Shown piece after piece: positions 55,424 through 57,968 of a stretch of 64,000 nucleotides of DNA. The position numbers and the translations under genes were made by a program. Position 1 is the first letter of the stretch; the number at the start of each line of letters is the position of its first letter. The notes under the pieces were generated by a model, which was not told the DNA's origin, did not search any database, and worked only from the letters and a program-made list of their open reading frames with translations. The stretch comes from Escherichia coli (GTDB taxonomy: Bacteria > Pseudomonadota > Gammaproteobacteria > Enterobacterales > Enterobacteriaceae): the NCBI RefSeq assembly GCF_044647545.1, contig NZ_CP172818.1. One strand, written 5' to 3'.

Positions 55424-57190
55424 ATGCCGCGTGGCCTGGAATTACTGATTGCACAAACCATTTTGCAAGGCTTCGATGCTCAGTATGGTCGATTCCTCGA
55501 AGTGACTTCCGGGGCGCAGCAGCGTTTCGAACAGGCCGACTGGCATGCTGTCCAGCAGGCGATGAAAAACCGTATCCATCTTTACGATCATCACGTGGGT
55601 CTGGTGGTGGAGCAACTGCGCTGCATTACCAACGGCCAAAGCACGGACGCGGCATTTTTACTGCGCGTCAAAGAGCATTACACGCGGCTGTTGCCGGATT
55701 ACCCGCGCTTCGAGATTGCGGAGAGCTTTTTTAACTCCGTGTACTGTCGGTTATTTGACCACCGCTCGCTTACTCCCGAGCGGCTTTTTATCTTTAGCTC
55801 CCAGCCAGAGCGCCGTTTTCGTACCATTCCGCGCCCGCTGGCGAAAGACTTTCACCCCGATCACGGCTGGGAATCTCTGCTGATGCGTGTTATCAGCGAC
55901 CTGCCGTTGCGTCTGCGCTGGCAGAATAAAAGCCGTGACATTCATTACATCGTTCGCCATCTGACGGAAACGCTGGGGACAGACAACCTCGCGGAAAGTC
56001 ATTTACAGGTGGCGAACGAACTGTTTTACCGCAATAAAGCCGCCTGGCTGGTGGGCAAACTGATCACGCCTTCCGGCACATTGCCATTTTTGCTGCCGAT
56101 CCACCAGACGGACGACGGCGAGTTATTTATTGATACTTGCCTGACGACGACCGCCGAAGCGAGCATTGTTTTTGGCTTTGCGCGTTCTTATTTTATGGTT
56201 TATGCACCGCTGCCCGCAGCGCTGGTCGAGTGGCTACGGGAAATTCTGCCAGGTAAAACCACCGCTGAATTGTATATGGCTATCGGCTGCCAGAAGCACG
56301 CTAAAACCGAAAGCTACCGCGAATATCTCGTTTATCTACAGGGCTGTAATGAGCAGTTCATTGAAGCGCCGGGTATTCGTGGCATGGTGATGCTGGTGTT
56401 TACGTTGCCGGGTTTTGATCGGGTCTTCAAAGTCATCAAAGACAGGTTCGCGCCGCAGAAAGAGATGTCTGCCGCTCACGTTCGTGCCTGCTACCAACTG
56501 GTGAAAGAGCACGATCGTGTGGGCCGAATGGCGGACACCCAGGAGTTTGAAAACTTTGTGCTGGAGAAGCGGCATATTTCCCCGGCATTAATGGAATTAC
56601 TGCTCCAGGAAGCAGCGGAAAAAATCACCGATCTCGGCGAACAAATTGTGATTCGCCATCTTTATATCGAGCGGCGGATGGTGCCGCTCAATATCTGGCT
56701 GGAACAAGTGGAAGGTCAGCAGCTGCGCGACGCCATTGAAGAATACGGTAACGCTATTCGCCAGCTTGCCGCTGCTAACATTTTCCCTGGCGACATGCTG
56801 TTTAAAAACTTCGGTGTCACCCGTCACGGGCGTGTGGTGTTTTATGATTACGATGAAATTTGCTACATGACGGAAGTGAATTTCCGCGACATCCCGCCGC
56901 CGCGCTACCCGGAGGACGAACTTGCCAGTGAGCCGTGGTACAGCGTCTCGCCGGGCGATGTTTTCCCGGAAGAGTTTCGCCATTGGCTATGCGCCGACTC
57001 GCGTATTGGGCCACTGTTTGAAGAGATGCACGCCGACCTGTTCCGCGCCGACTACTGGCGCGCGCTACAAAACCGTATCCGTGACGGGCATGTGGAAGAT
57101 GTTTATGCGTATCGGCGTGGCGTTTGGTATCGTAGCGAAAAAGTCAGCGCATTCCACCGTACGCCAGCGTCACTTCCTTCGCCGCTTTAA
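55424..57190 (+). CDS. aceK: Isocitrate dehydrogenase kinase/phosphatase AceK, 588 aa (C-terminal tail differs from the K-12 form)
   Basis: ORF track; full-length AceK homology to ...DVYAYRR, then ~23 divergent residues; 3' end overlaps iclR 3' end by 47 nt. Confidence 0.92.
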
Positions 57191-57968
57191 TCACCATCGC
57201 GCCAAACTCGGTCACGCGGTCATCGGTAATACGTGAAATCGGTCCGGAAATAGAAATTGCGGCAAACGGTTCACGGTGCTCATCGAAAATACACGCTGCA
57301 AGGCAACGTAGCCCCAGCGCATGTTCCTCATCGTCAAATGAATAACCCCGTTTGCGCGTTTGGGCGAGATCTTCTTTTAAATGCACAGGAGACACCAGCG
57401 TTGCGTGGGTATAGGCATGTAACCCTTTGCGGTGCAACAGCTTCGTCACCTGTTCTTCGCTCAGTTGGGCTAAAAAGGCTTTACCCGCACCGGAAGCGTG
57501 CATAGGTAATTTACCGCCGATAGGCGCGGACATTCGCATCAGGTGGGTACACTGTACCTGGTCGATAATAATCGCTTCATGATCGCTTTGATCAAGCACC
57601 GCCATATTGACCGTTTCGCCAGACTCTTCCATTAAATTGCGCAGGATAGGGTGAACAATTGCTAACAAATTACGGCTCTGGAGAAAGCTGCTGCCGACCA
57701 TAAAGGCATGTGCGCCGATTGCCCAGTGTCCCAGTTCGCCAACCTGACGCACGAAACCCTGCTGTTGCATCGTGGTTAGCAGGCGGTGGGTCGTGGAATT
57801 GGGTAACCCGGCTTGTTGCGCCAGCTCCGTGAGTGCCACACTGCCATTGGATTCGGCAATCCACTCCAGTAATTTCAGGCCACGCGTTAAAGACTGAACC
57901 TGTCCAGTCGCTGGTGCGGTGGCAACGGCGGGTTTTCTGCCGCGTTTCGCGGGAATGGGTGCGACCAT
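57144..57968 (-). CDS. iclR: Glyoxylate-shunt transcriptional repressor IclR, 274 aa
   Basis: ORF track 57144..58007; start set at ATG 57968 ([23 protein letters not shown]...). Confidence 0.95.

Follow-up and report, generated by a model that had tools for sequence, protein, structure and literature searches.

The locus considered here raises the question of why the aceK gene of an Escherichia coli chromosome should run past its usual end and into the neighboring, convergently transcribed iclR gene. The window, by which we mean the whole 64,000-nucleotide (nt) stretch of contig NZ_CP172818.1 (assembly GCF_044647545.1) that was analyzed, carries an aceK reading frame encoding 588 amino acids (aa), in which the canonical protein is followed by a 23-residue tail that replaces its last nine residues, RQRFSVRFV, and the gene overlaps the 3′ end of iclR by 47 nt. 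An earlier note on this DNA had described both the tail and the overlap, and we confirm its description and coordinates; it took them for the junction of an arpA deletion inside the 3′ end of aceK. Our comparison points instead to a second change, private to this record, in which a single stretch of 38 nt is represented by 17 nt, and we consider this change to be probably an artefact of assembly, consensus calling or polishing and not a mutation in the organism. What underlies the locus is, as far as its sequence tells, the ordinary arpA-less aceK–iclR junction of a phylogroup F E. coli resembling sequence type 648 (ST648).

The evidence that carries this view comes from a set of 5426 complete E. 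coli genomes, in 1314 of which aceK and iclR are contiguous, without arpA. The window's own genome presumably lies outside those matched, as exactly one genome never matches, even when a 20-kb query including an rrn operon is used, and the lack of a 100% match is thus no guide to whether the source record counts as a RefSeq complete genome. In all 1314 arpA-less genomes the region measures 922 nt, as against 901 nt in the window, and the best match (97.7%, 901/922) differs by gaps alone, with all 901 window bases matched and 21 bases missing. The records of strains ST648 (phylogroup F) and 536 (B2) both encode an AceK of 574 aa ending in RRRQRFSVRFV*, followed by a 16-nt spacer to the iclR stop and no overlap. 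In the window, a 17-nt patch stands in place of the last nine of these codons, of the TAA that follows them and of most of the spacer; at the junction it is the sole difference between the window and its clone-mates. The patch, GGCGTTTGGTATCGTAG, is contained in order, as an exact subsequence, within the 38 nt found in the other arpA-less genomes, AGGCAGAGGTTTAGCGTTCGATTCGTATAAATCAGAGG: the removal of 21 bases, in about eight blocks, yields it without a mismatch, a property shared by 0.6–1.3% of random or shuffled 17-mers in simulation (P about 0.006–0.013).

From here, the proposed course of events is short. In this one record, the 38 nt that span the end of aceK, from the ninth-last codon through the TAA, and the greater part of the spacer have collapsed to 17 nt; with the aceK stop gone, the frame runs on to the next in-frame TAA, which lies 47 nt inside iclR on its antisense strand, and the read-through mechanically creates the 23-residue tail and the overlap. 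These steps can be read directly from the bases, and because the overlap is a mechanical result of losing the normal stop, its length calls for no test against chance. The final step, that the collapse reflects a local error of assembly, consensus or polishing, is the part that we infer, and the real strain would then possess a 574-aa AceK and a 16-nt spacer. The patch begins immediately past a terminator-like hairpin at the iclR 3′ end, which is retained and is found at the same site in ST648. No terminator-like site was found on the plus strand in either the normal or the altered junction. IclR itself is 100% identical to the ST648/K-12-type protein.

Nothing resembling the altered junction was recovered from other collections. 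It is absent from the 5425 other complete genomes, and a more sensitive search of complete genomes with a 121-nt query spanning the junction returned the F-type sequence as its best match, at 83.1%. Among metagenome contigs, the normal junction gave seven matches and that of the window none. At the protein level, the 588-aa AceK (WP_400165098.1) forms a singleton cluster, on one contig, among about 15 billion proteins, while the 574-aa ST648 allele is present on at least 1000 contigs, and a homologue search with the C-terminal 97 aa did not find a second protein with the junction peptide GVWYRSEK. We also looked for an origin of the patch in the K-12 flank, in an inversion or in the junction of another species, and found no convincing match.

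Could the tail still be a scar of arpA loss, with the left end of the deletion in the aceK 3′ end and the overlap general among arpA-negative B2 and F strains? The premises of this idea stand up well. As the earlier note states, MG1655 carries arpA (2187 nt, minus strand) between aceK and iclR, and arpA is indeed missing from the window, where tblastn with K-12 ArpA, a protein with an N-terminal ShET2-enterotoxin domain and ankyrin repeats by Pfam search, gave a best E-value of 0.098, and the arpA region, used as a blastn query, found only chance matches of 13–16 nt. In K-12, the arpA 3′ end overlaps that of aceK by 32 nt, and the AceK proteins of K-12 and B2/F strains do part ways after ...RFSVR, ending in YGEMLF in the former and FV in the latter. 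Yet alignment with MG1655 and with B2/F genomes, together with comparison of AceK C-termini, indicated that the tail is not general in arpA-negative strains: the 922-nt junction occurs in 1314 of 1314 arpA-less genomes, aceK of ST648 and 536 stops 16 nt short of the iclR stop, and the window departs from its clone-mates by the 38-to-17-nt patch and nothing else. Furthermore, Escherichia albertii NBRC 107761, the cryptic-clade Escherichia sp. E1V33 and one further Escherichia representative carry the B2/F-type junction without arpA, and from E. albertii through the B2 and F strains this junction varies by point substitutions alone. Since E. albertii and cryptic-clade Escherichia share the junction, the absence of arpA looks ancestral, and arpA was probably gained by insertion on the branch to the remaining phylogroups, with no deletion in B2/F, which leaves an arpA deletion scar a most improbable source of the tail.

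The arpA-less state itself is already known and ordinary for B2/F strains, and the typing evidence in the window agrees with it. The AceK.f primer site of the Clermont quadruplex is matched exactly, and no site for ArpA1.r occurs in the window, even when three mismatches are allowed; therefore, the arpA polymerase chain reaction (PCR) is negative in silico. Compared with the arpA-negative B2/F junction as it is known from this assay (AceK.f/ArpA1.r; PMC4322292, PMC7464145, PMC12736214), the window is alike in lacking arpA and in its pattern of primer sites, but differs in being 21 bases shorter and in encoding an AceK of 588 aa in place of the canonical 574 aa with a 16-nt spacer and no overlap. 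The yjaA slot of K-12, between the rrnE 5S gene and yjaB, also falls inside the window and gave no tblastn match and no primer site, so that two of the four Clermont markers (arpA and yjaA) can be read here and both are negative. This combination fits phylogroup F, in which yjaA is negative, while most B2 strains are positive. The loci of the other two markers, chuA (positive in both groups) and TspE4.C2 (negative in F, positive in B2), lie outside the window, and phylogroup F is taken from the identity of the surrounding DNA (over 20 kb around the locus it shares 99.9% identity with ECONIH1, strain ST648 and similar genomes of the ST648 type) and from the assignment of ST648 to that group (PMC12736214). 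The marker state that the earlier note had ascribed to B2 and F is thus borne out for an ST648-like strain of phylogroup F that also lacks yjaA. A further K-12 gene, yjaZ, which follows rpoC, is missing as well; the empty K-12 slots lie at 27922–27930 (yjaZ) and 50522–50607 (yjaA).

Two other E. coli records illustrate further states of these slots. In strain BS-01 (NZ_CP172816.1), which is arpA-positive and unrelated to the strain of the window, arpA is annotated by the Prokaryotic Genome Annotation Pipeline (PGAP) as a frameshifted “ShET2/EspL2 family type III secretion system effector toxin” pseudogene, and the junction after rpoC has a short variant of its own. In strain HH97 (NZ_CP116409.1), about 580 nt separate the ends of aceK and iclR, which gives this slot a third state.

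A wider survey, covering the aceK–iclR region of 80 Enterobacteriaceae species representatives (loci L013–L092, 79 of which carry iclR), places the overlap in context. The distance from the aceK stop to the iclR stop ranges from −47 to +2306 nt across the 79 loci, and the slot is, on this survey, highly plastic and a hot spot of gene turnover. It is occupied by arpA in most E. coli, by a gene for an ASCH-domain protein in Salmonella, Raoultella and others, by a CTP_transf_1 membrane protein gene in Trabulsiella, Siccibacter and one Enterobacter sp., and by a GNAT gene in Superficieibacter, while aceK and iclR overlap by 4 nt in three species. A natural overlap of 47 nt, in the same frame and closed by the same TAA, is found in Pseudescherichia vulneris, Enterobacter cloacae M-7, E. 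quasihormaechei and a Pluralibacter metagenome-assembled genome (L040, L062, L071 and L090), and again in three metagenomic or SRA contigs (L006–L008). In these species AceK carries a tail of the form [NS][ED][SY][HR]HTPA[SL]PLS[RP]P, read from iclR antisense. The window resembles them in the length, frame and stop of the overlap, and the end of its tail is similar to theirs (...HTPASPLS[RP]P in those species). They differ from it in that their fusion to the iclR 3′ end is direct and species-wide and keeps the motif ...KQRF[CS]VRF, whereas in the window the motif is lost and the arrangement is private.

As Enterobacter, Pseudescherichia and Pluralibacter have an overlap of equal length that is closed by the same stop codon, one might suppose that the junction was imported by recombination from a lineage in which the overlap is natural. 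We regard such an import as hardly credible: the candidate donors retain the QRF.VRF motif, and their junction reads differently (...TGTGTGCGGTTTAACGAATCC...), the flanks in the window contain no foreign single-nucleotide polymorphisms (SNPs), the bases of the patch can all be taken in order from the F-type sequence, and no donor with an exact match to positions 57100–57150 was found among complete genomes or metagenome contigs. The overlap architecture, natural in the species named above, is viable in principle and known in kind, but its occurrence in this E. coli is a private one and probably spurious.

The artefact explanation is favored because the junction patch is one of five similar private patches, all of them in short lineage-specific junction segments. 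Compared with ECONIH1 across the 64 kb, the window is almost free of SNPs in unique DNA and unaltered within the body of every coding sequence, yet it contains the five private patches, four of which are net deletions (21 deletions with no mismatches; 8 deletions and 9 mismatches; 39 deletions, 12 mismatches and 4 insertions; and a 7-nt loss), the fifth being a 2-nt insertion in a repetitive extragenic palindromic (REP) element. The patches after rpoC, after rrnE and at the aceK–iclR junction are absent from all other complete genomes searched, that after rrnE also by the sensitive search. All five fall within the approximately 258 nt (0.4% of the window) that lack collinear homology to K-12, which include the yjaZ, yjaA and arpA presence/absence junctions, the 16S–tRNA spacer and a REP cluster; by our own calculation, the chance of such a five-of-five placement is of the order of 1e-11. 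These locations fit trouble at structurally variable sites. The rpoC patch lies where K-12 has yjaZ and sroH, and a part of it, CAGACTTTGC, matches the K-12 right flank, which is the reverse complement of the F-type GCAAAGTC; this 10-nt match suggests a small inverted segment and would explain little. Conserved elements damaged by the patches are the AceK C-terminal motif and the rrnE terminator hairpin. Judged by its stability from E. albertii to B2/F, the aceK–iclR junction is not a hypervariable site.

There is also a precedent for such an error. In E. coli CP178303.1 (GCA_047199065.1), a B2/F-type junction likewise has its aceK stop bypassed into iclR antisense, and by analogy this read-through may serve as a parallel for an artefact in the window. 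The two assemblies differ in that CP178303.1 is riddled with broken open reading frames (ORFs), whereas that of the window is clean save for its five short patches. The CP178303.1 chromosome measures 4.47 Mb, its aceB–aceK–metH region is split into many short ORFs, and it is probably an uncorrected long-read assembly.

Several observations weigh against an artefact. Apart from the patches the assembly is very clean, and the differences that set its two rrn operons apart are resolved copy by copy, which makes a crude consensus from short-read mapping unlikely. The patches contain no recognizable K-12 flank sequence, and no specific pipeline failure could be reconstructed. All of them avoid constrained DNA, a distribution that would also be expected of real mutations after selection. 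Folding of the ancestral junction revealed no unusual secondary structure (z = −0.26), and the same-stop 47-nt overlap is viable and natural in other Enterobacteriaceae. That the change is an artefact is, in the end, inferred at the level of sequence.

Two specific sources of error were considered. Mapping of short reads to a K-12-like reference is weakened by the resolved rrn differences and by the lack of K-12 bases in the patches. A simple hairpin-driven problem of sequencing or mutation at the junction is not borne out by the folding score, though the rpoC and rrnE patches do adjoin strong terminator hairpins.

The alternative to be weighed most carefully is then that the window records a real, strain-private complex deletion, that is, a stop-loss allele of aceK with iclR and its terminator-like hairpin intact. 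The sequence stands in a public record and its protein in RefSeq, the remainder of the window is of high quality, and the confinement of the private patches to weakly constrained DNA is what selection would leave behind. In the protein, the Pfam kinase domain remains whole as far as residue 564; tails beyond the C-terminal motif vary freely among species, and the same-stop overlap of 47 nt occurs naturally in four other species representatives. Against this, about eight separate deletions within 38 nt correspond to no known single mutational event, and five complex events set beside about two SNPs in 64 kb correspond to no known mutational spectrum. The change would also destroy a motif kept in all other surveyed Enterobacteriaceae, and searches of genomes, protein sets and metagenomes brought up no second example of it. 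We therefore hold a real allele to be unlikely, and prefer the explanation by an artefact.

The extent of what would be lost in a real allele can be seen from the protein itself. The AceK of the window matches PF20423 (AceK_regulatory) at residues 10–306 with 372.8 bits and PF06315 (AceK_kinase) at residues 310–564 with 403.5 bits, the latter over profile positions 1–255 of 256 and both above the gathering score, and it is approximately 99% identical to the sequences of PDB entries 3LC6 and 3EPS up to R565. The motif YAYR[RK][RK]QRF.[VIQL][RK][YF] is found throughout the 80 Enterobacteriaceae representatives of the survey, its basic positions being rarely substituted, and in an alignment of 43 rows the residues Q567, R568, F569 and R572 are lost in the AceK of the window alone. 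Beyond the conserved motif (...QRF.VR[YF]), the tail varies from 0 to 24 aa across species. An AlphaFold2 model of the 574-aa AceK, built on a shallow alignment of 43 sequences of at least 83% identity, reached a mean predicted local distance difference test (pLDDT) score of 50, falling below 50 at residues 411–574, and we draw no structural inference from it. Our reading of the literature on AceK found nothing specific about its extreme C-terminus.

Features of the aceK–iclR locus and private patches in the 64,000-nt window (patches described relative to ECONIH1 or to the other arpA-less genomes).
Feature	Position	Strand	Description
aceK ORF in the window	55424..57190	+	ATG start; 588 aa including the read-through tail; stop TAA at 57188-57190
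iclR coding sequence	57144..57968	-	274 aa; stop (TCA on the plus strand) at 57144-57146; annotated-type start; unchanged
Convergent aceK/iclR overlap	57144..57190	.	47 nt common to both genes
AceK read-through codons	57119..57187	+	23 codons; antisense to the iclR 3′ end from 57144 on
Terminator-like hairpin and T-tract, iclR 3′ end	57135..57166	-	Retained; same site found in ST648
Private patch, aceK–iclR junction	57119..57135	.	17 nt GGCGTTTGGTATCGTAG in place of 38 nt AGGCAGAGGTTTAGCGTTCGATTCGTATAAATCAGAGG of other arpA-less genomes; 21-nt net loss
Clermont AceK.f primer site	56750..56769	+	Exact match
Patch, 16S–tRNA-Glu spacer of the first rrn operon	6945-6953		6+1-nt loss (CTTGCG, T); removes one arm of a small hairpin
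Patch, just after the rpoC terminator	27914-27939		One stem G lost; 25 nt ATGGGTGTTATTCAGAGGGCAAAGT replaced by 18 nt AAACAAATCCAGACTTTG
Patch, rrnE 5S to yjaB (yjaA presence/absence junction)	50531-50598		Hairpin GGCCATCCGTCAGGATGGCCTTTTT missing; about 100 nt replaced by about 65 nt, loosely similar
Patch, REP element between aceA and aceK	55366-55367		CA insertion

The rrn operons of the window show a difference of another kind. The first operon carries the alleles of the second (rrnE) operon of ECONIH1 at the 16S variable region 6345–6360 and at four 23S positions (8958, 9393 and 9441–9443), while the second operon is 100% identical to ECONIH1 rrnE. This pattern looks like ordinary gene conversion between rrn copies.

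In practical terms, the locus suggests that even in a “complete” assembly of great cleanness a few garbled patches can lie hidden where lineage-specific junctions occur, and WP_400165098.1 should not be propagated as an AceK variant without read-level confirmation. The absence of arpA reports phylogroup F here and, together with the absence of yjaA, gives a textbook typing result; the AceK tail and the overlap should not be taken as a trait of arpA-negative strains. Should the change be real after all, for which we see a rather small chance, a natural ST648-like isolate would have lost the aceK stop and the QRF..R motif and would have independently recreated the overlap known from Enterobacter and Pseudescherichia. 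Its AceK would keep both Pfam domains but be 14 aa longer with the motif replaced, and its function or stability would probably be reduced or altered, with a harmful effect that might plausibly range from mild to strong, while expression of iclR would be essentially unchanged, with convergent transcription as in every B2/F strain. Such a strain-private and probably mildly deleterious variant of aceK would be of limited general interest, and it could provide a natural test of the role of the AceK C-terminus.

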